Positions 6,208 through 30,713 of a DNA stretch of 64,000 bases are shown piece after piece (positions within the stretch are counted from its first letter, which is position 1; the number at the start of each line of letters is the position of its first letter). Both the position numbers and the translations under genes were made by a program. This DNA comes from Bacilli bacterium. GTDB lineage: Bacteria; Bacillota_I; Bacilli_A; RF39; UBA660. The notes beneath the pieces were generated by a model, which was not told where the DNA came from, did not search any database, and saw only the letters and a list, made by a program, of their open reading frames with translations. The stretch is taken from assembly GCA_017617435.1 (NCBI GenBank), contig JAFZWF010000018.1, forward strand, positions 52,642 through 116,641, given 5' to 3'.

Positions 6208-6262
6208 TGTATTTATCTTTATATATGATATAATTTTAAGTATAGTAGAGGGTGTTGATTAG

Positions 6263-8023
6263 ATGTTTGGAAAAATACTTTATATTAACGATAATATAGC
6301 TCATGTTGAAAATCCTAATTCAAGTAATTTAGACGCACAAAGTGATTTAATGAACATGCACGTAATCTTTGAATCTAATGATCAAAGAATCTTAGGTGAG
6401 GTTACAGAGTTTAATCAAGAACTTATTAAAATTAAATTCTTAGGAGAATTTATAAACGGAAAATATGTTAATGGTGTTTTAAGAAAGCCACTTCTTTCAT
6501 CTACAATAAGAATAATAAATGGTGAAGAATTAAAAGAATTAGTTGGTTCAAGCACTGAAGCAACATTTCCACTTGGAATTAGCGCTGTTTATAAAGACTT
6601 TATGATTTATCCTAAAGTAAACGATTTATTTTCTAATCATTTAGCTATTTTTGGTAACTCCGGATCAGGTAAATCATGTGGTGTTGCCAGAATAGTTCAA
6701 AACCTATTTACTAATCGTAGTTTACTTTCATTTAATGCAAATTTATTTATTTTTGATGCATATGGTGAATATAAAAATGCATTTAGTAATTTAAATCAAC
6801 TTAACCCTAATTATAATTATAAATTTATAACAACAAATAAAACTGACGCTGAAGACTTTGATTTAAAAGTTCCATTTCATCTTTTAAATTTAGATGATAT
6901 TGCTCTTTTACTTCAAGCATCAACTCATAGTCAGTTGCCAATAATCGAAAGAACGATAAAACTATGTCGTATATTTGCTTTAAAAAATGATGAATCAAAC
7001 AAATATAAAAATCATTTAATTGCTAAAGCAGTTCTTGCAGTTTTATTTTCAAATCAAACTATTTCAAGTAAGAAAAATGACATATTTAAAATTATAGAAG
7101 TATGTCATACACCTGAATTTAATTTCGATTCAACAATTTCTGGTCTTGGCTATACTAGAAGCTTTAGTGAATGCTTTGAAATAGATTCAAAAGGAAACTT
7201 TGGTGAAAGTGTTTTAATAACTGATTATATTTTAAAACATATTTCTGAAGAAATTGAAGCAATTGAAGAACCAAAAGATGTTATATATACAATTGATGAT
7301 TTTGCAAAAGCCCTTGAATTTACACTAATAAGTGAAGGCTTTCAAAATAATGAAAATTTATTTTCAGATGCTATCATATTAAAGGTTAGAATAAACGGAA
7401 TAATAACAAGTTCACTAAAAAGAATATTTGAAAATGCCCCATTTAAAACAGTAGGTGAATATATTACTAGCTTAGTTGCAAAAAACAATCGTAAAAGTCA
7501 AATAATAAACATAAATCTTGAAGATATCGATGATACTCATGCAAAAGTAATAGTTAAAATAATTTCAAGATTACTATTTGAATTTGCTAAAACAAATCAA
7601 AATAGAGGAAAGATTCCTTTCCATCTATTCTTAGAGGAAGCGCATAGATATATTCAAAAAGACAATGATACTTTCTTAATTGGTTATAATATATTTGATA
7701 GAATTGCTAAAGAGGGAAGAAAATATGGAGTTATACTTGATATTATAAGTCAAAGACCTGTTGAAATATCAGATACGGTAATAGCTCAGTGTTCAAACTT
7801 TATGATCTTTAAAATGACCCATCCTAAAGATATTAAATATATTGAGGAAATGCTTCCAAATATTTCTCAAGATGTAATTGAAAAGCAAAAAATATTACAA
7901 CCAGGAAATTGTGTTGCTTTCGGTTCAGCATTTAAAATTCCAATGATTATAAAAATGGAAATGCCTAATCCATCACCACACTCATCATCATGTGACATCA
8001 CAAATGTATGGAAAGCAAATTAA
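6263..8023 (+). CDS. HerA/DUF87-family ATPase (FtsK-HerA superfamily)
   Basis: N-terminal barrel-like segment, Walker A GNSGSGKS, FDAYGEY, Walker B HLFLEEAHRYI, and EGRKYGVILDIISQRP...AQCSNFMIFKM, in the HerA motif order. SD GAGGGTG. Confidence 0.75.
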   Translation: MFGKILYINDNIAHVENPNSSNLDAQSDLMNMHVIFESNDQRILGEVTEFNQELIKIKFLGEFINGKYVNGVLRKPLLSSTIRIINGEELKELVGSSTEATFPLGISAVYKDFMIYPKVNDLFSNHLAIFGNSGSGKSCGVARIVQNLFTNRSLLSFNANLFIFDAYGEYKNAFSNLNQLNPNYNYKFITTNKTDAEDFDLKVPFHLLNLDDIALLLQASTHSQLPIIERTIKLCRIFALKNDESNKYKNHLIAKAVLAVLFSNQTISSKKNDIFKIIEVCHTPEFNFDSTISGLGYTRSFSECFEIDSKGNFGESVLITDYILKHISEEIEAIEEPKDVIYTIDDFAKALEFTLISEGFQNNENLFSDAIILKVRINGIITSSLKRIFENAPFKTVGEYITSLVAKNNRKSQIININLEDIDDTHAKVIVKIISRLLFEFAKTNQNRGKIPFHLFLEEAHRYIQKDNDTFLIGYNIFDRIAKEGRKYGVILDIISQRPVEISDTVIAQCSNFMIFKMTHPKDIKYIEEMLPNISQDVIEKQKILQPGNCVAFGSAFKIPMIIKMEMPNPSPHSSSCDITNVWKAN

Positions 8024-8052
8024 AACTTGCATTATATGCAAGTTTTTCTTTT
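8023..8052 (+). terminator. rho-independent terminator isolating the HerA-like gene
   Basis: AAACTTGCA (8023-8031) pairs with TGCAAGTTT (8037-8045), and the T-run continues to 8052. Confidence 0.8.
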
Positions 8053-8130
8053 ACAATCATACTATTTAATTGACTTTAATTATTATTTAAAGTATGATAA
8101 AAAGTACACTTATTAAAGAAGGAATTAATA

Positions 8131-8979
8131 ATGCAAGATGTAAAAACATACCTAAAAAGACTATATTCAAAAGAAATAACGCCAGAAGAAATATTTAATA
8201 TTTTTAGTATGCTTTTAAAAGAAAATAATTTACTAAATAAGGTTAGTTACATCAGATTTATAAACGATAATAATAATCATCTATCATCAGATGTTGCCGT
8301 ATATTTTAAAGAACAAAAAACAATTATTTTTGATCTTAAAAAATTAGAAAGTAAAATAAATGAAATTGACAAATCATATTTTGATGATATTGTTTATAGT
8401 CAAATTGTTACATTAAATGAAATATATATAGCACTTGAAAAAGTGTTTGTTGAAAATATTGATTCAACTTATGATCATAAAGAATTATTAAATATTAAAA
8501 ACTTGTTAATTAAATATAAAGAAAATCATGATAATGAAAAAAATAAGTATTTTGATTTAAATGATAATGATGTAAAAGTTTATTCTAAAATAAAAGAAGA
8601 TAATATAAAAATTGATATGTTATCACCAATTGACAGATATATAAAATTAAAAGCATTTTTCAAAACTGTAGATGCTATAAAATGTATGTATAAAAATAGA
8701 GAAGAATTAATAGATTTTTATAATAATAACGTTGATATTATATCAAATGGATATGGTAAAGAAGGAAATACTATAACTTATCCAATATACAATTATTTTT
8801 CAAAAAGAAATCAAAAAGAAGGAAAAAAATATTTAAGAGAATGTGATTGGTATGAAGAAGACTATATGGAAATGCTTTCTAATGTATCAAACAAATATTC
8901 TTTCGAAGAAAGATTGATCTACGGAATGCCAATTGATACATGCGAGTATCGTTTAATTAGAAAAAATAGCGAAGGTTAG
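8131..8979 (+). CDS. hypothetical protein (282 aa, N/K/D/E-rich, no recognisable motif)
   Basis: Long ORF with SD GAAGGA. Own promoter-like TTGACT-17-TATGAT upstream. Confidence 0.6.
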   Translation: MQDVKTYLKRLYSKEITPEEIFNIFSMLLKENNLLNKVSYIRFINDNNNHLSSDVAVYFKEQKTIIFDLKKLESKINEIDKSYFDDIVYSQIVTLNEIYIALEKVFVENIDSTYDHKELLNIKNLLIKYKENHDNEKNKYFDLNDNDVKVYSKIKEDNIKIDMLSPIDRYIKLKAFFKTVDAIKCMYKNREELIDFYNNNVDIISNGYGKEGNTITYPIYNYFSKRNQKEGKKYLRECDWYEEDYMEMLSNVSNKYSFEERLIYGMPIDTCEYRLIRKNSEG

Positions 8980-8987
8980 GGTTTTGC

Positions 8988-10178
8988 ATGAAGGAAAAAA
9001 TAAATAAAATAATATATGTTTTTGATGATAATTTAGATTCAGTTATTTCATTTGAAGCAAGTCAAAAAGGATTGTACGATCTTTTATTAAAATATAATTT
9101 TGCTATTGTTTCTTATGAATTGTTAAAAGATAAAAAATCATATATAAATTTAGTTTATCTAACTGAACTTTATAATAAGATATTTGATGAATTTGATTTC
9201 ACTCTTGAAATTAAAAATAACAATGAACTTATGAAATTCTATAAAAATGTTAAAGAATTATCATCAAATTTTTATCAGCACATGTCAAATAATAAATCAA
9301 CACTTGATAAATTAATTAGTTATTATAAATTAACAATAAATGGTTATTCATATTCTATAGAATATGAATTTGATAATGTTGAAGACTATAAAAAGATAAA
9401 TAACATTGAAACATTAACTATGAATAGAGTAATGGGCGGAATATCAACTATTGATTTATCAGACCTTGATGATGAACCAACAGATGAAGAAATAGAAGAA
9501 TATATGAAAGATCCAGACTGTAATTTAGAAAGTGAATTAATTTTGGACACTATTTATTGTTATCCTATTCATGAAGATTTCTTCCATTATTTAGATGAAC
9601 AATTAAGACTTGAAACTAAAGCGGAAGATTTATTAAATCTAGTTATCTACACAGAAGAATATTTACATCAATTTAAAGATAAACAAATATCTGATAACTA
9701 TAAAAAAGACTATGATAATTTAAATAAAACATTAAACTCTAAAAGAAATTTATTAAAAAAAGTTAAAACAAATTACAATATTTATTATCACAATATTAAA
9801 TCAGAATTATCATTTTCAATCGAAGCTATCCAAACAATGTATAATAATAAAGTTGTATTTATAAATAAAATTTTTAGTACATTTATCAATAAAGGTGATT
9901 TGAATTTTTTTAGAGAATTAAAAGCACTATTTAATGAATTCAATATTAAAGATGTAGATGACTGTATAAATCTAGTTAAACAGTTTTCAGATATGCTTGA
10001 AGAAAATAAAATGGATAATGAATTAATATGTTTAAAAAATTTAATAAAAAACGGAAATGTAACAAAATTTATATCTGATTTGTATAATGGATTCGATAAA
10101 GTTACAAAATCATTCATCTTTAATCAAAAATTTGAAAGATATCTTGATGATGGAAAAGATGGTCAAGAAAGGAAATAA
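8988..10178 (+). CDS. hypothetical protein (396 aa, acidic central segment, no recognisable motif)
   Basis: Long ORF 8 nt after the previous stop, so likely co-transcribed with it. Confidence 0.6.
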   Translation: MKEKINKIIYVFDDNLDSVISFEASQKGLYDLLLKYNFAIVSYELLKDKKSYINLVYLTELYNKIFDEFDFTLEIKNNNELMKFYKNVKELSSNFYQHMSNNKSTLDKLISYYKLTINGYSYSIEYEFDNVEDYKKINNIETLTMNRVMGGISTIDLSDLDDEPTDEEIEEYMKDPDCNLESELILDTIYCYPIHEDFFHYLDEQLRLETKAEDLLNLVIYTEEYLHQFKDKQISDNYKKDYDNLNKTLNSKRNLLKKVKTNYNIYYHNIKSELSFSIEAIQTMYNNKVVFINKIFSTFINKGDLNFFRELKALFNEFNIKDVDDCINLVKQFSDMLEENKMDNELICLKNLIKNGNVTKFISDLYNGFDKVTKSFIFNQKFERYLDDGKDGQERK

Positions 10179-13345: not shown

Positions 13346-15745
13346 ATGATAGAAATTAAAAATTTACACAAGTATTTTAATAGACATAAGAAAAATGAAC
13401 TTCACGTAATTAATGATGTATCATTAAAACTTCCTCAAAAAGGATTAGTTGCACTTTTAGGTCCATCTGGTTCTGGTAAAACAACAATGCTTAATTTAAT
13501 AGGTGGGCTTGATAAACAAAATAAAGGTAAAGTAATAATTAATAATGATAAAATATCTAAAAAATCCTTCTTAAAAAGAGATAAATTAAGAACACTTAAT
13601 ATTGGATATATTTTTCAGGATTATAAGTTAATAGATGATGATTCTGTATTTGACAACGTAGCTCTATCACTTAAACTATTAGGTGTAAAAAACAAAAAAG
13701 AAATTAAAAGAAGAGTAGAATTTATCCTAGAAAAAGTTGATATGTTTAGATATCGATATCGTCCAGCTGGAATGCTATCTGGTGGTGAAAGACAAAGAGT
13801 AGGTATAGCAAGAGCATTAGTTAAAGATCCAGATATAATTTTAGCTGACGAACCAACCGGTAACTTAGATAGTAAGAATACTCTTGATGTTATGAATATA
13901 ATTACTCAAATAGCCAAAGAAAAATTAGTTATTTTAGTTACTCATGAACAAAATCTAGCTAAATTTTATGCAGATAGAGTAATTGAATTTGCTGATGGAG
14001 TAATTACAAAAGATTATAAAAATGAACAACCTGATGAACTTGATTATCAAGTTGAAAATAAGTTTTATCTTAAAGATTTTAAACATAAAAATAAAATTAA
14101 TAAAGATAATGCTGAAATTAATATTTATTCAAATGATAAAAGTAACGTTAAAATTGATATAGTTATTCGAAATGGAAACTATTATATTAAAACATACAAT
14201 AATTTCTTAACTCAGCTAGTAGATGAAAATTCTGCAGTAGAATTTATAGATGATAAATATAAAAAGATGAATAAAAATGATTTAGAAGTTAAATCATTTG
14301 ATGCTGAAGATATAAAGCATAAAAAATATAGTAGTATATTTAATGTATTTAGTTTTATATTTAAAGGCTTTGAAAAAGTATTTAATTATTCTTTTTTTAA
14401 AAAACTATTACTTGTAGGTTTTCTACTTTCTGGTGGCTTTATTCTTTATGCCATATCTTCTTACACCGCAGCTATTACAATTAAAGATGATATGTTTATT
14501 ACAGAATCAAGAGATTATGTAACTATAACTACAGGTAAAAACAATGTTGACGTGTATAAAAAGATTAAAAGCCTTGATGAAAATGCTTTTATAATTCCAG
14601 GATCAGCAACTGGTAAGTTCTATGTTAAAGAAGATTACTTATCTCAGTTCTTTGATTATAGTTTAGCTTTCTTAGGTAATTTAGTTCCACTTGATGCGGT
14701 AAGTAAAGAAGATTTAATATATGGTAGACTTCCAGAAAATTCAAGTGAAATAGTTGTAGATAAATTTTTAGTTAAGAAAAAACTAACAAGTCCTGATTAT
14801 AAAATGCAAGGAATAACAAGTGTTAAAGAATTATTAAATAAAACTTTAATTATGGAAATATCTGACAAAACATATAAAATAGTTGGTATATCAAATAAAA
14901 ATGAACCATGTATTTATATAGATAAAAATGATATAATTCCTATCATTCAATTAGGAAAACTAAATGAAGAAGAATCATATGATGAATCACAAATAATATA
15001 TAGTTATAGTTATAATAAGGATGATCTAAAAATAGTTAAAGGAAGAGAACCTGTTAAAGATTATGAAATAGTTGTAAATTATAATAGTAGATATGAGTAT
15101 CCTTTAAATAAAAAGATAGATACTCAAGTTAATAAAAACAAACTGCTTGTAGTAGGTTATTATAAATCTGATTACGATATAAATGATATATATGCTAGTG
15201 ATTCAACTATAATGTATAGTATTATACCTAAAACAAGTAACTATAGTATTTTTAAAGGAAATATTAATCTATATAAAGAAAATAACTATAGTGCTTCAAA
15301 TTCATATGAATTATCTAAAAATAAATATATTAAAGATAATAAAGAATCAGTTAAGTCTAAACTTATTGTTTCATCTATAATAATATCTATATCTTTAGTA
15401 GAAGCTTTCTTAATATCTAGATCAAGTTTCTTATCTAAAGTAAAAGAAGTAGGAACTTATAGAGCAATAGGTGTTAAAAGATTAGATATATGTAAGATGT
15501 TTGTTGGTGAATCATTTGCTATAACAACACTATCAAGTGTTCCTGGTATTATATTTGCAAGTTATGTACTTAAAAAATTAAGTAGTATTAAATACTTAAA
15601 ATATATGTATATTGTTAATTTCAAAGTAATAATTCTATCAATTATTATTGTATATGTATTTAATATCCTTGTATCTTTAATTCCAGTACTTAATTTAATT
15701 AGAAAGACACCAGCTAATATACTTTCAAGAAATGATGTAGATTAA
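13346..15745 (+). CDS. ABC transporter, fused ATPase and FtsX-family permease
   Basis: GPSGSGKTT, LSGGERQRVGIARAL, ILADEPTGNLD and C-terminal FtsX-like TM bundle. Starts 2 nt after the previous stop. Confidence 0.85.
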   Translation: MIEIKNLHKYFNRHKKNELHVINDVSLKLPQKGLVALLGPSGSGKTTMLNLIGGLDKQNKGKVIINNDKISKKSFLKRDKLRTLNIGYIFQDYKLIDDDSVFDNVALSLKLLGVKNKKEIKRRVEFILEKVDMFRYRYRPAGMLSGGERQRVGIARALVKDPDIILADEPTGNLDSKNTLDVMNIITQIAKEKLVILVTHEQNLAKFYADRVIEFADGVITKDYKNEQPDELDYQVENKFYLKDFKHKNKINKDNAEINIYSNDKSNVKIDIVIRNGNYYIKTYNNFLTQLVDENSAVEFIDDKYKKMNKNDLEVKSFDAEDIKHKKYSSIFNVFSFIFKGFEKVFNYSFFKKLLLVGFLLSGGFILYAISSYTAAITIKDDMFITESRDYVTITTGKNNVDVYKKIKSLDENAFIIPGSATGKFYVKEDYLSQFFDYSLAFLGNLVPLDAVSKEDLIYGRLPENSSEIVVDKFLVKKKLTSPDYKMQGITSVKELLNKTLIMEISDKTYKIVGISNKNEPCIYIDKNDIIPIIQLGKLNEEESYDESQIIYSYSYNKDDLKIVKGREPVKDYEIVVNYNSRYEYPLNKKIDTQVNKNKLLVVGYYKSDYDINDIYASDSTIMYSIIPKTSNYSIFKGNINLYKENNYSASNSYELSKNKYIKDNKESVKSKLIVSSIIISISLVEAFLISRSSFLSKVKEVGTYRAIGVKRLDICKMFVGESFAITTLSSVPGIIFASYVLKKLSSIKYLKYMYIVNFKVIILSIIIVYVFNILVSLIPVLNLIRKTPANILSRNDVD

Positions 15746-15747
15746 TT

Positions 15748-15783
15748 AAAATATGCTTTAAAATAAGCATATTTTAATTTTAA
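15748..15783 (+). terminator. rho-independent terminator of the tcdA-ABC operon
   Basis: AAAATATGCTT (15748-15758) pairs with AAGCATATTTT (15765-15775), followed by a T-rich tail. Confidence 0.75.
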
Positions 15784-15784
15784 A

Positions 15785-15812
15785 TTGACAAATTAATAAA
15801 TGTGTTTATAAT
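15785..15812 (+). promoter_or_regulatory. sigma-A-type promoter
   Basis: TTGACA (15785-15790), 16-nt spacer, TATAAT (15807-15812). Confidence 0.55.
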
Positions 15813-15846
15813 AAATAGAACTTTTCTTTAAAGAGTTGAATAAATA

Positions 15847-16020
15847 GTGGGTAGGAAGTTTGAAGTAAAACAAAATGGAAATTTATACAAAATGATAAGT
15901 GAAAAAAGTGAACAAGAAATCGTAGATTATATATATAAGATTTCACAGTATAAAACAGCAAAATACTTAAACAGAGAATGTTCAGATGGAAGTCCCAGAA
16001 CTATAGATTTTCTTAGATAA
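15847..16020 (+). CDS. possible small protein (57 aa, GTG start), not in the ORF track
   Basis: 58 stop-free codons in AT-rich DNA just downstream of a consensus promoter. The SD is weak, so the start is uncertain. Confidence 0.3.
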   Translation: MGRKFEVKQNGNLYKMISEKSEQEIVDYIYKISQYKTAKYLNRECSDGSPRTIDFLR

Positions 16021-16046
16021 CTTTTATTAATAATGGTGGTGAAAAA

Positions 16047-16391
16047 ATGAATAACAAACATAATTTTAAAGTAACGGATTATTCTAAAAGATATAATAAT
16101 ATTGGAAATAATAAAGAGATAGGTGATCCTGAGATATCAATAAAAAATATTGAGAGAATTCGACTTAATTCCGAAATTTTATCTTTAATAGAACAATATC
16201 ATGATGTTATTAATAAACTAGATAAATGCAAGGGAAATAACTCTCAACTTAACTTATTACTTAGAGAAAAAACTAAAATTCAGTTAAAACTACACAAACT
16301 GACTTTATTAACTAGTGAAAGTAATACAACCGAACTAATAAATAAGGTTGTACAAAAAAGAAATGAAACTATAAAACGTTTATTTAGATAA
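16047..16391 (+). CDS. hypothetical protein (114 aa)
   Basis: ORF with SD GGTGGTG upstream. Confidence 0.55.
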   Translation: MNNKHNFKVTDYSKRYNNIGNNKEIGDPEISIKNIERIRLNSEILSLIEQYHDVINKLDKCKGNNSQLNLLLREKTKIQLKLHKLTLLTSESNTTELINKVVQKRNETIKRLFR

Positions 16392-16399
16392 GAAAAAAC

Positions 16400-16428
16400 T
16401 TGACATTTGTTCGATATTTTGATATAAT
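16400..16428 (+). promoter_or_regulatory. conserved promoter module, copy 1
   Basis: TTGACATTTGTTCGATATTTTGATATAAT: consensus -35, 17-nt spacer, consensus -10. The first 22 nt are identical to the copies at 16599 and 24764 (minus strand). Confidence 0.75.
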
Positions 16429-16457
16429 TTATTCATACATATGAGGGGGTTATATGT

Positions 16458-16538
16458 ATGATGATTATATTAAAAATCGCGACATTTGGTATAATGGCTC
16501 GTGGTTACATAAAAATGACTGAGAAGAAAAATATATAA
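16458..16538 (+). CDS. 26-aa hydrophobic peptide, type I toxin-like (MMIILKIATFGIMARGYIKMTEKKNI)
   Basis: GAGGGGG SD lies 8 nt upstream, with own promoter and terminator. Paralogous to the peptide at 16656. Hydrophobic helix plus charged tail. Confidence 0.6.
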   Translation: MMIILKIATFGIMARGYIKMTEKKNI

Positions 16539-16572
16539 AAATGATTAGATTATGTTCTAATCATTTTTATTT
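16539..16572. terminator. hairpin terminator with bidirectional architecture
   Basis: AAATGATTAG (16539-16548) pairs with CTAATCATTT (16557-16566). A-run on the 5' side, T-run on the 3' side. Confidence 0.75.
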
Positions 16573-16598
16573 ATATTAGTAATAAAACACTGTATAAA

Positions 16599-16627
16599 TT
16601 GACATTTGTTCGATATTTTGATATAGT
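16599..16627 (+). promoter_or_regulatory. conserved promoter module, copy 2
   Basis: TTGACATTTGTTCGATATTTTGATATAGT. Confidence 0.75.
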
Positions 16628-16655
16628 TTATATATGTACAGGGGGATTGTACATT

Positions 16656-16733
16656 ATGATAGTATTGAAAATTGCAGTGTTTTGCGCACTTACTTATACA
16701 TATATTAAAACAGTAGATCGAAAAGATATATAA
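16656..16733 (+). CDS. 25-aa hydrophobic peptide, type I toxin-like (MIVLKIAVFCALTYTYIKTVDRKDI)
   Basis: GGGGGA SD lies 9 nt upstream, with own promoter and terminator. Aligns with the 16458 peptide (MI[IV]LKIA.F....YIK..[EDR]K[ND]I). Confidence 0.6.
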   Translation: MIVLKIAVFCALTYTYIKTVDRKDI

Positions 16734-16747
16734 TATTTTGTGTGAAA

Positions 16748-16780
16748 AAAGAGTAGATATAAGATTCTACTCTTTTAATT
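16748..16780. terminator. hairpin terminator with bidirectional architecture
   Basis: AAAGAGTAGA (16748-16757) pairs with TCTACTCTTT (16766-16775). Flanked by an A-run and a T-run. Confidence 0.75.
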
Positions 16781-16841
16781 ATAGATTGACTTATACTATA
16801 CGTATTTATATAATAACAAATTATACGGATGGAGGAATTTT

Positions 16842-17681
16842 ATGTTTAGTTTAGATAACGTTTCTATTGATAAACTAGGTCTTAGATATCAGTGGCCTAA
16901 GGCTTATATAGCAGCTAGTAAGGAAAATGTAAGAACAATTCAAGATTTTATAGATTTTATAAAAAAACATCCAGAGTATCAAAATGAAAAAAATGGTAAA
17001 TTAAATAATTATACTATTCAGATGAGATTGGATGAAATAATTAAAAGAGTAAATAGATTATCTAAAAATGGTAAAGAACCTGAAGTATATTTCTGTGAAA
17101 AATATAAGCATCCAGAACTTGAATATAATGATAGTTGTAATTATATTGATTCAATATTTTTTCAAAATGCAGCTCAAAAACAAATCCTAGATTACACATA
17201 TATGATTCCCGTAAGAATTGTAAAAAATGATTTAAGTTTAACAACATCTTATGGAGAGAACCAATTTAGATCGTATATTTATCGTTTAAATGATGAAAAA
17301 ATACAATCAATTATTAGTAATTTAAATATGTTTACAGAGCAAATAGAAAGACAAGCAAAATTAACTGATAGAAGAGATATAAATTTATTTTTATATGAAA
17401 GAAATATGAAAATAGAACTACTTAAGAAAAAGTATGCCGAAGTCATAGCTTATCTAATATATACTGATAAAGATTTAGTATGGGGAAAAATGAATGATAA
17501 AGAAAAAAGACTTTATTTATCATCAGTTTTCAAAACAGGTACTCAAAAAATGACATTTAATGAGCATAAATGCAAAGAGTTATTAATTAAACAAATAGCA
17601 AATTACACAACTTTACCAGAACTAGAAAATATGCACAAAGGTAATTATAACGTATTAAAAAGATTTATAAGAAAAGAATAG
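16842..17681 (+). CDS. hypothetical protein (279 aa)
   Basis: SD GGAGG. Promoter-like TTGACT-17-TATAAT at 16786-16814. Confidence 0.6.
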   Translation: MFSLDNVSIDKLGLRYQWPKAYIAASKENVRTIQDFIDFIKKHPEYQNEKNGKLNNYTIQMRLDEIIKRVNRLSKNGKEPEVYFCEKYKHPELEYNDSCNYIDSIFFQNAAQKQILDYTYMIPVRIVKNDLSLTTSYGENQFRSYIYRLNDEKIQSIISNLNMFTEQIERQAKLTDRRDINLFLYERNMKIELLKKKYAEVIAYLIYTDKDLVWGKMNDKEKRLYLSSVFKTGTQKMTFNEHKCKELLIKQIANYTTLPELENMHKGNYNVLKRFIRKE

Positions 17682-20567: not shown

Positions 20568-20732
20568 AAATAATTTACCTCCTATTAGTAGTATGCTCGT
20601 ATGCAAATATATTAATATGGTAATTATTGTAAAAATATATTGTTATTTTTACCGATAAATTATATAATAAATAGCACTTATTTTAATAAGGTTTTTCCAA
20701 ATATATTATTTTAATAGAAAGATGTGTTATTT

Positions 20733-21161
20733 ATGAATAAAAATAAAAAAGATACACATATACTACTTAAATTAATATATCCTATAACTTATATCACTTT
20801 AGGTTCTATTGCTATAACTGCATACTTTCAAAAACAAGACAAAAATAAGAAAATAATCGAACATGAATATATACTTACGTGTTCAAACGGTTATATGGAT
20901 ATTAATTATTTTGGCACCAAAGAAATAATTAAAAGTGAGTTTAAAGAATTTATTGATTATTTAAGTTTAGATGATAAATCACTAGTTGTATTTGTTTATG
21001 ATATAGATCAAGATAAAGCATTGTCTAAAGCAAATTTTATTAAAAATCATCTTGATTTTGATAATGATAATAATATCATTATCAAATCTAACTTTCTTAA
21101 TAAAGAAATATTTGAATATATTTATAAAGATTTAAATAACAAGACAAGAACAAGAAAATAA
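20733..21161 (+). CDS. single-pass membrane protein, paralog family member 1
   Basis: N-terminal TM helix plus a conserved C-terminal domain shared with the next two genes. ATG 20733 is preferred over GTG 20724. Confidence 0.6.
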   Translation: MNKNKKDTHILLKLIYPITYITLGSIAITAYFQKQDKNKKIIEHEYILTCSNGYMDINYFGTKEIIKSEFKEFIDYLSLDDKSLVVFVYDIDQDKALSKANFIKNHLDFDNDNNIIIKSNFLNKEIFEYIYKDLNNKTRTRK

Positions 21162-21194
21162 GTTATAATATTAAATTAAAGAAAGAGAGAGTTG

Positions 21195-21695
21195 ATGAAG
21201 ATGTCAGAATTTGATTTTAATTATACTGAAAATAATGGAAAGATGAATAATAAAAAAACTAAATCATTAAATGATAAAAAGGTCGTTAATTATGTATTAG
21301 CAGGTGGAATTTTTCTTGGAGGGTTAACAACAGGAATTATAATTGGTTCAAGTCAAACAGAAAGCGACTATAAAAAAACTAAAGAAAAAGAATGTGCTGC
21401 AATTGTTATTCAAAATGGAGAAATCAAAGTGTATGATTTGGGTACACAGGATGTTAGAAAGAAAATGGATAAAAACTACGAAAAATACTATTTTGAAGAA
21501 AGTAAAACAGCTGTTTATATTATCTATGGTGATGAAGCATTTAATAGAGCACAACTTATCACATATAATATTGAATTAGATAAAAATAATTATTTAATTA
21601 ATGATGGTTTATTTAGTGATGAATATTATTATGAATATAAAAAATTAGATGAAAATGGTGTAAAAACTAGTAGTATCAGTCGTAAAGCTGAATAA
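21195..21695 (+). CDS. single-pass membrane protein, paralog family member 2
   Basis: TM helix (VLAGGIFLGGLTTGIIIG) and shared motifs (IKVYD, VYIIYG, NIELDKNNYLI, YYYEY). The start could be 21192, 21195 or 21201. Confidence 0.6.
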   Translation: MKMSEFDFNYTENNGKMNNKKTKSLNDKKVVNYVLAGGIFLGGLTTGIIIGSSQTESDYKKTKEKECAAIVIQNGEIKVYDLGTQDVRKKMDKNYEKYYFEESKTAVYIIYGDEAFNRAQLITYNIELDKNNYLINDGLFSDEYYYEYKKLDENGVKTSSISRKAE

Positions 21696-21724
21696 TTTAA
21701 TATAACAGAAGGGCAGAGGTTTTT

Positions 21725-22225
21725 ATGATAATGAGAAATCCTGATAGAAAGTTTGAAAGACTTGGTATTGATTTTGATAGTGATCCAGTTGTTATTAATA
21801 ACGAATCTAATGTAACAAAAAAGGAAGATATACTTATAAATGTTGTATCATTTACTTTGGCCACATCTTTAGTTGGCATTATAATAATACCAAATGCAAA
21901 ATCGTGTGAACATTTAAAAATTTACAAGACTTCTTCACTTATAGTAATAAATAATCATGAAATTCATATCTATGATAATGTACCTATTGAAGAAGTACAT
22001 ACAAAAAATAAATATAATATAATTGAATTAAATAATCAAAACTGGTTAATTTATGTTTATGGTGCCAATGCATCACAATATTCTGATTTTATGGCATCTA
22101 ATATATATTTTGATGAAAATAACAAAATCGTTTTAGATTCATTTAAATTAACAGATGAAAACTTTGAATATTTTATCAATAACGAAAACTCAAATGATAA
22201 TAATTCACGCGTAAGAAAAGGGTAG
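21725..22225 (+). CDS. single-pass membrane protein, paralog family member 3
   Basis: TM helix (FTLATSLVGIIIIP) and shared motifs (IHIYD, LIYVYG, NIYFDENNKIV, NFEYF). Confidence 0.6.
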   Translation: MIMRNPDRKFERLGIDFDSDPVVINNESNVTKKEDILINVVSFTLATSLVGIIIIPNAKSCEHLKIYKTSSLIVINNHEIHIYDNVPIEEVHTKNKYNIIELNNQNWLIYVYGANASQYSDFMASNIYFDENNKIVLDSFKLTDENFEYFINNENSNDNNSRVRKG

Positions 22226-23764: not shown

Positions 23765-24184
23765 TTAAAATGGTTTTCTTTGATGTGTAATTTCTTCTTC
23801 ATCACTTACCACTTTAATACCATTTTCTTCTAAGAATTTGTTAACTTCTTTTGCTTCTGATACAGTTATTTTGTTATTTAATTTAAGATTATTTAAAAGT
23901 GTGTGATAATCTGAATTCTTTATCGTTTTATTTGGATTATTATTACCAATTTTTAATAATTGTTCTTTAAAATAATTTAAAACTATATTTTCATCATTTC
24001 TAACATTATTTAATATACTTTCAATAACATCTAAATCTTTATCAATTATTTTATAAATATTTTCATGAACTAAAGGATTTAATTTTGATACTTTTAATCT
24101 TAGTTCACAAATTCTTCTTATAACTTGATTTTGAAGTCTTAAAGCTTCTATTTGATTCTTATTTCTTTCTGTATTATATTCCAT
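23765..24184 (-). CDS. hypothetical protein (139 aa)
   Basis: Third gene of the minus-strand operon driven by conserved promoter copy 3. C-terminal FLEENGIKVV motif. Confidence 0.55.
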   Translation of the reverse strand: MEYNTERNKNQIEALRLQNQVIRRICELRLKVSKLNPLVHENIYKIIDKDLDVIESILNNVRNDENIVLNYFKEQLLKIGNNNPNKTIKNSDYHTLLNNLKLNNKITVSEAKEVNKFLEENGIKVVSDEEEITHQRKPF

Positions 24185-24192
24185 ATATCTCT

Positions 24193-24492
24193 CTACCCTT
24201 TTCTAATTCTACTTACATTATCTTTATCATATGATTTAGTTTTAATCTTATTAACTCTAATCTTATCAACGATTTGAATTGAATGATATTGTAAATAGTT
24301 ATATATTAATTCTTCTACTTCTTTAACTATAATACCGTTTCTTTCAAAGAAGTATATAGCATTATGTAAAGATCTTCGATCAATATATCCATCTTTATCA
24401 GCTAGTGATAAAACGTATTCTTCAACCATTTGGATATTTATTTTAATATCATCGATTCTTTTTAATTCATCTACTAATTTGTATAAATCCAT
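24193..24492 (-). CDS. hypothetical protein (99 aa)
   Basis: Second gene of the same operon. FFERNGIIVKEVEE motif. Confidence 0.55.
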   Translation of the reverse strand: MDLYKLVDELKRIDDIKINIQMVEEYVLSLADKDGYIDRRSLHNAIYFFERNGIIVKEVEELIYNYLQYHSIQIVDKIRVNKIKTKSYDKDNVSRIRKG

Positions 24493-24504
24493 AATTTTTA
24501 CCCC

Positions 24505-24711
24505 CTATTTTGTTTTTGGTGCGTTTTTTATAACAGACATTCTGTATATTCTTTTTCCTTCATCAATCGCACTTAAAACACTTAATAATTCAGCTTTCAT
24601 AAATTTAAGTTCATATTCTTTTTCTTTTTTAGTTGTAAATCCAATGGTTAAATCATGTGGATTTACTCCCCTATTATGTTTAATCATGTTAGTAGGCTTA
24701 TTATTTTTCAT
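24505..24711 (-). CDS. hypothetical protein (68 aa)
   Basis: GGGGGA SD and the conserved promoter/5'-UTR module lie directly upstream. The overlapping plus-strand ORF 24479-24715 is rejected. Confidence 0.6.
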   Translation of the reverse strand: MKNNKPTNMIKHNRGVNPHDLTIGFTTKKEKEYELKFMKAELLSVLSAIDEGKRIYRMSVIKNAPKTK

Positions 24712-24735
24712 ATAATCCCCCTATACATGAGAATA

Positions 24736-24764
24736 ATTATAACAAAATATCGAACAAATGTCAA
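24736..24764 (-). promoter_or_regulatory. conserved promoter module, copy 3
   Basis: The reverse complement reads TTGACATTTGTTCGATATTTTGTTATAAT. Confidence 0.75.
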
Positions 24765-25868: not shown

Positions 25869-26645
25869 TTATAAATATCTTGATTCAATCTCAGCAATTT
25901 TATCCATAACTTCTTCATAGTTATCTGCTGTAACTTTATCATAACCAAGTTCTCTTAAAGCTTGTACTTTATAAGTGTTAAGTTGTTGAGTTCTTGTAAG
26001 TTTTTCTTCATTTCTTCTTTCAATTTCTTGAACAAATTTTTCATGAGAATCAGATACACGAGATCTTGATGCACCACCTGTATTATAAAGATTAAGTGCA
26101 GAATATAAAATTCCCTCAAAAATAAATTGTTTATCTTCATTAAATTTATATTCATCATGCTTAATAAATCCAGTTATTTTACTAATATAACCAAAGAAAT
26201 AATTAATTTCTGGAACATTATCAATAGATTGAAGAAGATGATATAAATATGTTGCAGATGCTACATTTTCTTTTTTATTCTTTTCATCTATAAGTCTTTC
26301 TTTAAGTAAATAAGTAATGTCCATTAAAAGATCTTGTTCTTCTTTATCTAAACCTTTTAAATCAAAATAACTATCTAAATCAGAAGCTGATTTTACTCCT
26401 TGGTTAAGTCTATTTTCAACTTCCATTAAATATTCAGTAGTAACGTTAATACCAGAAATAGTATCATCATCACCATCATCTATATTAAGAAGTTTAAAAA
26501 GTAATATTTTCTTTTCTTTAGGCCATTTATTTATATCATTAAGTTCTAAGTAGTTATAGACCATTTGTCTAGACACACCTAAGTATTTAGCCAGCCTTAC
26601 TTTAGATACTCCAAGTTCTTGTAATAATTCATTTAATTTACTCAT
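25869..26645 (-). CDS. XRE-family helix-turn-helix transcriptional regulator with a long C-terminal domain
   Basis: N-terminal HTH (LGVSKVRLAKYLGVSRQMVYNYL). ATG 26645 is preferred because the GAGGGAAG SD overlaps the GTG at 26654. Confidence 0.7.
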   Translation of the reverse strand: MSKLNELLQELGVSKVRLAKYLGVSRQMVYNYLELNDINKWPKEKKILLFKLLNIDDGDDDTISGINVTTEYLMEVENRLNQGVKSASDLDSYFDLKGLDKEEQDLLMDITYLLKERLIDEKNKKENVASATYLYHLLQSIDNVPEINYFFGYISKITGFIKHDEYKFNEDKQFIFEGILYSALNLYNTGGASRSRVSDSHEKFVQEIERRNEEKLTRTQQLNTYKVQALRELGYDKVTADNYEEVMDKIAEIESRYL

Positions 26646-26749
26646 AATAGACACTTCCCTCTTCTATTAAACTATTTACAATTAAAATATATCATAGTTA
26701 ACATTTATGTGTCAAGTAAAGTGTATAGATTTTAAAAAAGAACTTATAT

Positions 26750-29775: not shown

Positions 29776-29868
29776 ATGAGTAAAAGAACAAAAAGATTAA
29801 TTGTATGGATAATGTTTTTCATTATGGTAGCATCTGTTGTTGCTGGTGTACTTGCATATTTAATTTAA
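29776..29868 (+). CDS. 30-aa membrane micro-protein (MSKRTKRLIVWIMFFIMVASVVAGVLAYLI), not in the ORF track
   Basis: AAGGA SD upstream. Basic N-terminus plus a single TM helix. Confidence 0.4.
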   Translation: MSKRTKRLIVWIMFFIMVASVVAGVLAYLI

Positions 29869-29930
29869 TTAAAGTATAATATCTTTCCGAAACTTAAATT
29901 CAAGTTTAATATTTTTTAGGGGGAATATTC

Positions 29931-30713
29931 ATGAATTTAATAAGTATGTTAGATGAAGAGTTAAAAAATAAACATCTATCAAAAAATGAAACATTAAGGT
30001 ATATCTATCTTCGCGTATGCGAGATTTTTTCTTTTGATCCAAGATGGTTTTATACAGTTGTATGGAGTAACCATGATCTTTTGAAAAGTATTAACGAAAA
30101 AGTATTAGATGTTGAAAATATTGATGACACGAAAGTTATATGTCATAACGTCTCTAGATACATTCTAAAACCATTAATAGAAGAATTTACCGGTTTTGAT
30201 TGTGAACCAATAAGTAATTATGATCACACTCACCTAATAGTTAAAACTAATAAAGGTTCTAGAGATCTTGATCCGGTATTTGGTGATTTTTCAAGAGTTA
30301 AAGTTAATATTGAAACTAAAGATTATGAAGGTATTTCAAGACATGAACTTCAATTAATAGATAAATCACTTGGTTATAATTTAAAAAACGAAAATAATTT
30401 AATATCAACTTATGAAAAATTAGAACCAGTTGAAAATCTAATGAAATTTCAAAGATTACTTAATAAAGAAAAACTTGATTGTTACTCTGATATAAGATAT
30501 TTATTTACGACTCTAGCAAGAATAGATAAAATGTTTTACGAAACATATTTAAACAAAGAATATGATTTTAAAAAACTTATTAGAGTATTTGGAATCAATA
30601 AGTATTACATAATTGAAAAAGATAGTAATTATTACAAATTACGAGAATCAAATAAAAAAGAATTTGATATATATGAAAGAAACGATATATATCGTTCAAG
30701 ATTTATAAAATAA
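29931..30713 (+). CDS. hypothetical protein with a Cys-His-Asp arrangement (possible transglutaminase-like fold)
   Basis: AGGGGGA SD. VICHNVS...HTHLIV...DLDP motif order. Confidence 0.5.
   Translation: MNLISMLDEELKNKHLSKNETLRYIYLRVCEIFSFDPRWFYTVVWSNHDLLKSINEKVLDVENIDDTKVICHNVSRYILKPLIEEFTGFDCEPISNYDHTHLIVKTNKGSRDLDPVFGDFSRVKVNIETKDYEGISRHELQLIDKSLGYNLKNENNLISTYEKLEPVENLMKFQRLLNKEKLDCYSDIRYLFTTLARIDKMFYETYLNKEYDFKKLIRVFGINKYYIIEKDSNYYKLRESNKKEFDIYERNDIYRSRFIK

Follow-up and report, generated by a model that had tools for sequence, protein, structure and literature searches.

Introduction

Extended -10 promoters of the sigma-A type, with their '-16 region' (TRTGnTATAAT), are the closest described counterparts in Gram-positive bacteria of the element reported here. 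A second point of reference is offered by promoters under LexA control: the LexA box of Bacillus subtilis has the consensus CGAACATATGTTCG, in which certain G and A positions of the left half matter, and examples of small membrane toxins regulated by LexA are known, tisB and dinQ being induced by DNA damage in Escherichia coli. Furthermore, to judge from the reference list of PMC3997798, 5' stem-loops and stabilisers resembling a Shine-Dalgarno (SD) sequence are documented in Bacillus (aprE; the STAB-SD of cryIIIA). Here we describe a promoter box of 22 nucleotides (nt), the 22-mer, which occurs three times in a stretch of 64,000 nt from a Bacilli bacterium of the RF39 lineage (assembly GCA_017617435.1, contig JAFZWF010000018.1, positions 52,642 to 116,641). 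This whole stretch, called the window below, is chromosomal DNA of about 24% GC that carries polysaccharide-synthesis genes, ABC transporters, mnmA, gpsA and rarA. The DNA metagenome runs that contain the region are gut metagenomes; a search of RNA-seq runs gave none that covers it.

An earlier reading of the window (the original prediction) proposed that three identical promoters share an operator and a covarying, SD-presenting hairpin, and named a nearby XRE-family gene as a candidate regulator. Our analysis favours, at somewhat better than even odds (about 0.55), a module in which a sigma-A-type promoter carries an operator in its spacer and heads a set of accessory genes, often with a leader hairpin.

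Results

Anatomy of the promoter box

The 22-mer (TTGACATTTGTTCGATATTTTG) was found in three exact copies in the window, at 16400-16421 and 16599-16620 on the plus strand and at 24764-24743 on the minus strand, which bears out the identity claimed earlier; in shuffled sequence only 0.01 matches are expected even with up to three mismatches allowed. Degenerate copies were absent when the search was relaxed to seven mismatches. The next-closest matches, with 6-7 mismatches, were at chance level and fewer than in shuffles.

The 22-mer consists of the -35 hexamer, the spacer and the TG of the extended -10 element of a consensus sigma-A-type promoter. Each copy has TTGACA, a 17-bp spacer that ends in TG-N, and then a -10 hexamer. 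In promoter copy 1 (16400-16428, plus strand), the -35 hexamer TTGACA lies at 16400-16405, the 8-nt spacer core TGTTCGAT (at about -27 to -20) at 16408-16415, the TG at 16420-16421 and the -10 hexamer TATAAT at 16423-16428. Copy 2 (16599-16627, plus strand) has the same 22-mer followed by TATAGT at 16622-16627, and in copy 3 (24736-24764, minus strand) the -10 hexamer is TATAAT at 24741-24736. Scored against the criteria for extended -10 promoters of the sigma-A type, the three copies reached 11-12 of 12, with the TG present in all, and no other site in the 64 kb matched TTGACA-N14-TGnTATAAT with at most one mismatch. Counting 7 nt past the -10 hexamer, the predicted transcript starts are about A16435 (copy 1), A16634 (copy 2) and about 24729/24728 (copy 3). 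A dyad search of the conserved block gave nothing above 5/8, and its sole internal feature is a direct repeat phased by 11 bp (GACATTT / GATATTT).

A further perfect promoter, TTGACA-16-TATAAT with an unrelated spacer, lies at 15785-15812 (plus strand), just past the terminator of an ABC permease gene. It heads two open reading frames (ORFs) of 57 amino acids (aa; 15847-16020) and 114 aa (16047-16391), which precede the peptide cassettes described below; the C-terminus of the 57-aa product, GSPRTIDFLR, is kept in L003 and L016 (L001-L025 being the related loci that we examined alongside the window).

Conservation of the promoter box in relatives

Exact 22-mers were found in two other GTDB species and 12 metagenome contigs. 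The carriers form a sub-clade within the uncultured, low-GC Bacillota of gut and rumen. A scan of viral contigs gave no match to the 22-mer, which argues against a link with phages. With one exception (L025:8947), every copy lies 5' of an SD and ATG, these being 24-50 nt past the -10 hexamer. The promoter assignment is thus supported at the level of sequence, by position as well as by the perfect extended -10 make-up. In all copies the identity starts at the -35 hexamer and ends at the TG.

Ten copies come from loci that were fetched by protein identity rather than by the motif (four in L017, two in L021, one in L024 and three in L025), and these showed mismatches at 5 of 220 positions. Across all copies, variation was confined to positions 7, 8, 17, 18 and 19, while the -35 hexamer, the core TGTTCGAT and the final TTG never varied. 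This constancy suggests an operator, and the module very probably contains a binding site for a postulated regulator. Sequences around the box are far less constrained. At least eight variants of the -10 hexamer occur (TATAAT, TATAGT, TATCAT, TATACT, TACAAT, TAGTAT, TATATT and TATTAT), the leaders differ between copies, third-codon positions of the peptide genes vary at 22 of 24, and orthologous proteins among the carrier genomes are 45-90% identical. In the close relative L021, the ortholog of copy 2 has one change, at position 7, and the ortholog of copy 3 keeps the exact 22-mer. The promoter of one peptide paralog (L012:1894) has the form TTGACA-17-TAACAT, with the TG present and an unrelated spacer; the basal promoter architecture is thus independent of the core.

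Two side observations concern the count and fate of copies. A run of N occupies about 17020-17115 of L021, exactly where promoter copy 1 would be expected in this relative of 93-98% identity; the repeated 22-mer probably disrupts short-read assembly, so that copies may be under-counted in metagenome-assembled genomes. The exceptional copy at 8947-8968 of L025 (plus strand) is an orphan variant (TTGACATTTGTTCGATTATTTG) with neither a G-run SD nor an ORF behind it, and is aimed into the 3' end of the convergent gene for a ZIP transporter. Possibly it is a copy in decay, or else a promoter for an antisense or small RNA.

Could the box be a portable, strong and constitutive promoter without a dedicated regulator? 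It would have been spread or retained before acquired cassettes by recombination or gene conversion, the 22-bp identity acting as an upstream anchor in hot spots, and its uniformity would reflect concerted evolution and selection for strength. The exact-or-absent distribution in the window is consistent with this, as are the unrelated downstream genes, the content that varies among relatives at the same site, the tandem arrangement of copies 150-600 bp apart, the assembly gap in L021 and the lack of a palindrome. However, the identity persists where orthologous proteins are 45-70% identical and synonymous sites are saturated. It is cut precisely at the functional edges, the -35 hexamer and the TG, next to -10 hexamers and leaders that diverge freely, and the substitutions spare the 8-nt core. 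Moreover, the 3' ends of the cassettes are not conserved, and no 22-mer-bearing locus contains a recombinase gene; integrase-family genes were seen only in L018-L020, which lack the 22-mer. We therefore regard a portable promoter as unlikely. The pattern of invariance is what would be expected from selection on a protein-binding site in the spacer, and recent copying predicts it less well.

A leader hairpin around the Shine-Dalgarno sequence

As predicted, each promoter copy is followed by a -10 box and a 5' untranslated region with a G5 SD. The three runs, at 16445-16449, 16641-16645 and 24721-24717, belong to a total of only 11 G5 or C5 runs in the window. Folding with RNAfold looped out the G-run in all three leaders, with the arms named in the original prediction, at -11.1 kcal/mol for copy 1, -6.9 for copy 2 and -4.4 for copy 3. 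Leader hairpin 1 (16434-16460, plus strand) has a stem of 9-11 bp that pairs CATACATAT (16434-16442) with ATATGTATG (16452-16460), with GGGGG as the loop, and the 3' arm ends with its AUG (16458-16460). In leader hairpin 2 (16634-16654, plus strand), ATGTACA (16634-16640) and TGTACAT (16648-16654) enclose the GGGGG, and the AUG (16656-16658) lies 2 nt past the 3' arm. Leader hairpin 3 (24708-24730, minus strand) pairs UCAUGUA with UAUAUGA, including a G-U pair (inner arms CATGTA at 24729-24724 and TATATG at 24714-24709); the GGGGG sits in a 9-nt loop and the AUG (24711-24709) within the 3' arm. When the flanks of the G-run were shuffled, an equally stable SD-in-loop structure was reached in 0 of 500 trials for copy 1 (0.000) and in fractions of 0.002 and 0.010 of the trials for copies 2 and 3. 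Dinucleotide shuffles of the whole segment gave z = -4.1 for copy 1; copies 2 and 3 were modestly unusual (z = -1.7).

An SD-in-loop hairpin of -4 kcal/mol or lower was present in 12 of 20 non-redundant leaders of the promoter class. These 12 comprise all leaders of genes for small hydrophobic peptides, the family of a 228-aa protein, one gene for a 284-aa protein (stem CUCAAAA/UUUUGAG) and copy 3 of the window. In contrast, control genes with a strong SD in the same loci had such a hairpin in 2 of 72 cases, one of which is itself a class member, and their leaders had a mean folding energy of -1.6 kcal/mol. Loops of the class hairpins measure 5-9 nt and stems 6-11 bp; the AUG is inside the 3' arm or 1-3 nt from it. 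The stems start 5-10 nt past the -10 hexamer, that is, at -2 to +3 relative to a start that is itself predicted. The distance from the -10 hexamer to the AUG is 24-35 nt in class members, apart from one case of 50 nt. Their SDs are runs of G4-G6 at a normal spacing of 6-10 nt from the AUG, and nearly all members have such a run; among the 90 strong-SD genes of the same loci, class members included, 12 have one.

The stems are of at least five different types, four unrelated ones flanking the G-run besides the ATGTACA type. The type of copy 1 recurs in L009 and L025, and in the L021 ortholog of copy 3 the arms are unchanged while neighbouring leader bases differ. For the ATGTACA/TGTACAT type (nine sequences), we tabulated pairs from verified arm strings, MAFFT having misplaced loop gaps in alignments of such short hairpins. 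Compensatory double changes occurred at pairs 2 and 5 (one each) and wobble changes at pairs 3 and 4, and broken pairs were confined to the helix ends. Both double changes come from one sequence, L012:1894, the paralog with a different promoter, and hence the hairpin goes with the peptide gene rather than the 22-mer. The leader hairpin is a real RNA structure under selection in the peptide genes and in three further families. The covariation claimed earlier is thus real for the peptide genes, and it does not extend to the promoter class as a whole.

Searches against Rfam gave no match, neither for the whole window at gathering thresholds nor for 15700-17000 at E-values up to 1. Concerning a C-rich anti-SD RNA, the C5 runs of the window are either class SDs of the opposite strand or lie inside genes. 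A gene starting at 29931 (region 29866-29933, plus strand) also has a G5 SD, with a 5'-proximal hairpin (AAACTT/AAGTTT) upstream of it and another promoter, TTGCAT-17-TATAAT; the organism may use such 5'-proximal hairpins more widely.

The most likely role of the leader hairpin is translational throttling, a judgement based on the tight loops, the stems of 6-11 bp and the AUG inside or touching the stem. By covering the start codon and confining the SD to a loop of 5-9 nt, the hairpin would hold initiation down, and it may also shield the 5' end from exonucleolytic decay. The opposite effect, enhancement of translation by an SD displayed in the loop and possibly brought into register with the AUG, has in its favour that the minimum-free-energy folds of the 12 leaders leave the G-run unpaired and that the SD-AUG spacing is normal. 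We consider it a minor possibility: the loops are short and the AUG is covered or closely abutted, the stability of -4 to -11 kcal/mol stands against the mean of the other genes, and six class members have no hairpin at all. Structure of such stability in the initiation region should reduce initiation. Of the 'SD-presenting' hairpin in the original prediction, the looped G-run has stood; as to its function, throttling or protection of the 5' end fits at least as well.

Candidate regulators

To our knowledge, none of the motifs of CtsR, CcpA (cre), CodY, Spo0A, PurR, Fur, TnrA, WalR and PhoP, nor parS, fits the core convincingly. A resemblance to SOS control was noted. Here the core would be a degenerate Gram-positive LexA (Cheo) box, CGAAC-N4-GTTCG, with a perfect right half (TGTTCG) and a left half taken over by the -35 hexamer (TTGAC), and the peptides and the Fic protein described below would be induced by damage. 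TTGAC-ATTT-GTTCG has the right 4-nt spacing, the changes at positions 7 and 8 fall within the N4, and the variant TTGACATATGTTCG agrees with the B. subtilis consensus at 11 of 14 positions. However, the left half TTGAC matches two of five consensus bases (three of six with the flanking A), so that a palindrome of two half-sites is not formed. Furthermore, no canonical GAAC-N4-GTTC occurs in intergenic DNA of the loci scanned for it, and signature motifs of recA, uvrA, uvrB, ruvB and lexA were not found in the 258 kb that the loci contributed to this search. SOS control is therefore quite unlikely, and the resemblance to a TGTTCG half-box is a lead, not a result.

The candidate regulator of the original prediction is a protein of 258 aa with a weakly matching N-terminal helix-turn-helix (HTH) domain (25869-26645, minus strand). 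Pfam HTH_3 scored 19.5 bits (E = 0.001), short of the gathering cut-off of 23. Local similarity to the XRE-type HTH domains of CapH, Stl, HipB and Aca1 was seen with Foldseek, at root-mean-square deviations of 2.5-3 A and E > 0.3, and structure prediction with fold search gave no informative match for the C-terminal 200 residues, which are helical. The protein is 98% identical to its ortholog in another species despite 9.5% divergence of the DNA, whereas its neighbours are 45-50% identical, and 62 synonymous against 5 non-synonymous codon changes indicate strong purifying selection. It has 4445 homologs; the 120 listed are all at least 72% identical and 240-274 aa long, nearly all of them exactly 258 aa. 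The gene order mnmA - HTH - ZIP - rarA - gpsA is constant. The protein is a putative lineage-specific core regulator, whose gene is among the most conserved of the lineage.

The HTH gene's own promoter (about 26700-26730) keeps the arrangement TTGACA-N5-6-TGTTAAGTA...TATAAT...TGTAAA across clades. This constancy suggests autoregulation. The spacer motif TGTTAAGTA, conserved in all of them, differs from that of the 22-mer.

Repression of the 22-mer promoters by this protein is highly doubtful. The XRE-like N-terminal domain and the extreme purifying selection would suit a repressor; a 22-mer promoter lies about 40 nt past the HTH stop codon in L004 and L014 (1.1 kb off in the window), and the TGTTAAGTA of its own promoter is loosely like TGTTCGATA. 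Nevertheless, the gene is a syntenic core gene with thousands of homologs, the Pfam match is below threshold and the fold matches have E > 0.3, and most 22-mer copies are at least 9 kb away or elsewhere in the genome. Orthologs of 73-83% identity keep the recognition helix unchanged, yet their loci have no 22-mer-like site at up to five mismatches within the flanks examined (10 kb on each side in L018-L020; 2-5 kb in L022 and L023), and scanning L018-L020 revealed no peptide genes. The evidence thus does not specifically support the XRE gene as the regulator.

Downstream genes and their genomic placement

The 22-mer heads at least 13 gene families that are mutually non-homologous. Commonest among them are genes for hydrophobic peptides of 21-26 aa with a charged C-terminus, of which the window holds a tandem pair. 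Peptide gene 1 (16458-16538, plus strand) encodes 26 aa, MMIILKIATFGIMARGYIKMTEKKNI, and is followed by a terminator-like hairpin at 16535-16570 (plus strand; A-run, 9-bp core stem and T-run in the fold of 16434-16570), which a simple terminator scan missed on account of its fewer than three G-C pairs. Peptide gene 2 (16656-16733, plus strand) encodes 25 aa, MIVLKIAVFCALTYTYIKTVDRKDI, with a terminator-like hairpin at 16748-16775 (plus strand; fold of 16633-16775). The two peptides are paralogs, and seven further non-redundant family members were found in relatives. Among eight members of 25-26 aa (the 21-aa copy of L009 being left aside), the number of variable columns out of 24 was 16, 12 and 22 for the first, second and third codon position, respectively. 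This is a coding signature, as expected of translated genes. The peptides matched nothing in Pfam (E up to 10) or NCBIfam (E up to 1), and we consider them a new gene family.

Copy 3 heads a set of three ORFs on the minus strand (23765-24711), encoding 68 aa (24505-24711), 99 aa (24193-24492) and 139 aa (23765-24184), which probably form one operon. The 99-aa ORF has its own G5 SD at 24505-24501. No known domains were matched in any of the three products, and the 68-aa product has a single homolog cluster. Elsewhere the promoter heads genes for a 430-aa Fic-domain protein, a DUF218 protein, the 228-aa protein mentioned above, and ORFans of 40, 68, 89, 127, 284, 322, 449 and 1128 aa. The Fic-domain gene (motif HPFEDGNGRTGR) is found at 1141-2495 of L001, and also in L010 and L015, with its 22-mer promoter right after the mutS stop codon. 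Together, the downstream genes are a real set that is probably co-regulated.

The modules lie in variable islets between core genes, namely between the ABC permease gene and gpsA, between the HTH and ZIP genes, and between mutS and the gene next to it. Many copies share one syntenic hot spot, ABC permease-gpsA, with content that differs per relative. A scan for tRNA and tmRNA genes found none, and most neighbouring ORFs had either no match or a match below threshold in Pfam and NCBIfam.

Islets of this kind seem to gather accessory or defence genes. In L022, a relative without the 22-mer, the islet beside the ZIP gene encodes a protein of 799 aa (6226-8625, minus strand) with TIR-domain matches, faint beta-propeller matches and a defence-like appearance. 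Within the window, a HerA-like ATPase gene (NCBIfam 'anti-phage-associated helicase HerA', below the cut-off) is followed by ORFs of 282 and 396 aa without Pfam match (6263-10178, plus strand), and these may form a defence module. Three tandem ORFs of 145, 167 and 166 aa at 20724-22225 (plus strand) each have an N-terminal hydrophobic segment; the 167- and 166-aa products are paralogs (30% identity, E = 8e-7), and the third ORF has a homolog in L017.

The peptide cassettes resemble type I toxin-antitoxin systems in several respects: in length and build the peptides are like type I toxins, hydrophobic over an N-terminal stretch and charged at the C-terminus, the cassettes occur in tandem with a strong promoter and a structured start codon, and a toxin-like Fic gene stands under the same promoter. 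Such toxins would be restrained by the 5' hairpin and an antisense RNA. However, a sequence scan revealed no convergent or overlapping promoter-like site above chance inside or just past the cassettes. Some relatives have just 10-40 nt between the peptide gene and the promoter or ORF behind it. The peptide stop codons of L009 and L012 are followed within 27-40 nt by another 22-mer promoter, which leaves no room for an antisense gene, and in four relatives another ORF with its own SD directly follows the peptide ORF, as in an operon. Rfam at E = 1 and the toxin families of Pfam and NCBIfam yielded no match either. A type I system is accordingly very unlikely. The locus does not match a quorum-sensing pair of the Rgg/SHP (RRNPP) kind either, as the HTH protein has no TPR-like domain match and the peptide genes are not adjacent to its gene.

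Discussion

A promoter with a proposed spacer operator

The results favour a sigma-A-type promoter with an operator in its spacer. The core TGTTCGAT would be the operator, or half-operator, of a trans-acting DNA-binding protein; most simply, this protein would be a repressor that keeps RNA polymerase from a promoter which is very strong by itself. Behind the module stand accessory genes that are few in number, unrelated to one another, specific to the lineage and placed in variable islets. The shared operator of the original prediction remains plausible and has been strengthened by a spacer core that is invariant across species, while its binding protein is a postulated one.

Several points weigh against this interpretation. 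The start site, the activity and the regulation of the promoter are all deduced from sequence, and the regulator is hypothetical. The conserved block is without clear dyad symmetry, which is unusual for a classic site of a dimeric repressor. Most copies beyond the window were collected by exact match, which inflates the invariance and leaves some 10-14 copies free of bias, and the exact-or-absent pattern in the window would also be expected from recent copying or gene conversion. As to the leader, 6 of the 20 class leaders lack structure and 3-4 have their hairpin upstream of the SD, so that the hairpin is not integral to the promoter class. Moreover, a looped-out SD is commonly taken to be accessible, and the effect on translation may therefore go either way.

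A more far-reaching version of the operator model, which we put forward tentatively and think unlikely to hold in full, sees in the 22-mer the regulon of a reduced-genome clade of uncultured gut Bacillota. One DNA-binding protein would read the asymmetric TGTTCGAT and silence a changing, potentially harmful cargo of 25-aa membrane peptides without antisense partners, the Fic protein and ORFans. New members would be recruited to the regulon when they insert behind the module at one of a few hot spots, and the 5' hairpin, with the SD in its loop and the AUG in its stem, would act as a second, post-transcriptional lock.

A base-perfect cis-element in a lineage that is known from metagenomes only gives a direct handle on the regulator, through DNA-affinity capture with the 22-mer, and on its regulon. 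The new peptide family escapes gene callers, its ORFs having just 21-26 codons. The module is also a compact natural case of a promoter, a leader structure and an SD type that are inherited together before interchangeable genes. Should the promoter prove to be under inducible repression, the signal that induces it would tell whether the accessory genes serve in stress, against phage or in competition; if it is constitutive, it would be a ready-made strong expression module for low-GC Bacillota.

Comparison with known systems

With the extended -10 promoters of Gram-positive bacteria, the module shares the TTGACA hexamer, the 17-bp spacer, the TG at -15/-14, the TATAAT-like hexamer and the position directly upstream of short leaders and start codons. 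It differs in that the non-contacted spacer is conserved to the base across species and unrelated genes, and more strictly so than the -10 hexamer, a pattern foreign to ordinary promoters. As in LexA-controlled SOS promoters, the operator would overlap a strong promoter, and the perfect GTTCG half stands at 4-nt spacing from a left half containing GAC; the hydrophobic peptides and the toxin-like Fic protein recall the LexA-repressed small-toxin promoters of tisB and dinQ. In contrast to these, the left half is a -35 hexamer that matches poorly, and an antisense partner of the tisB/istR type was not seen.

The leader recalls the aprE stem-loop, which acts together with ribosome binding, and the STAB-SD of cryIIIA (both cited in PMC3997798), in its stem-loop near the predicted 5' end and its strong purine- or G-rich SD close by. 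In those cases the stabiliser is separate from the translated start, whereas here the SD lies in the loop and the AUG in the stem or touching it. Type I toxin messenger RNAs of Firmicutes (fst, txpA, bsrG and sprA1) likewise encode small hydrophobic peptides with a charged tail and have 5' structure at the initiation region. Our leaders differ from them in the looped-out SD, some of the peptide ORFs stand first in an operon, and sequence searches revealed neither an antisense RNA gene nor a match to a known family. Rgg/SHP pairs resemble the locus in combining an HTH protein of about 260 aa with genes for hydrophobic peptides of 21-26 aa in the same 10-kb region. Here, however, the peptide genes are 9 kb from the HTH gene, the charged end of the peptides is C-terminal instead of N-terminal, neither sequence nor fold searches matched the HTH protein to TPR or Rgg, and its gene is a highly conserved core gene that is present where the peptides are absent. 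The element adds a further case to a familiar arrangement, in which the promoter-operator of a regulon is joined to a 5' leader stem-loop, and is not a new regulatory principle.

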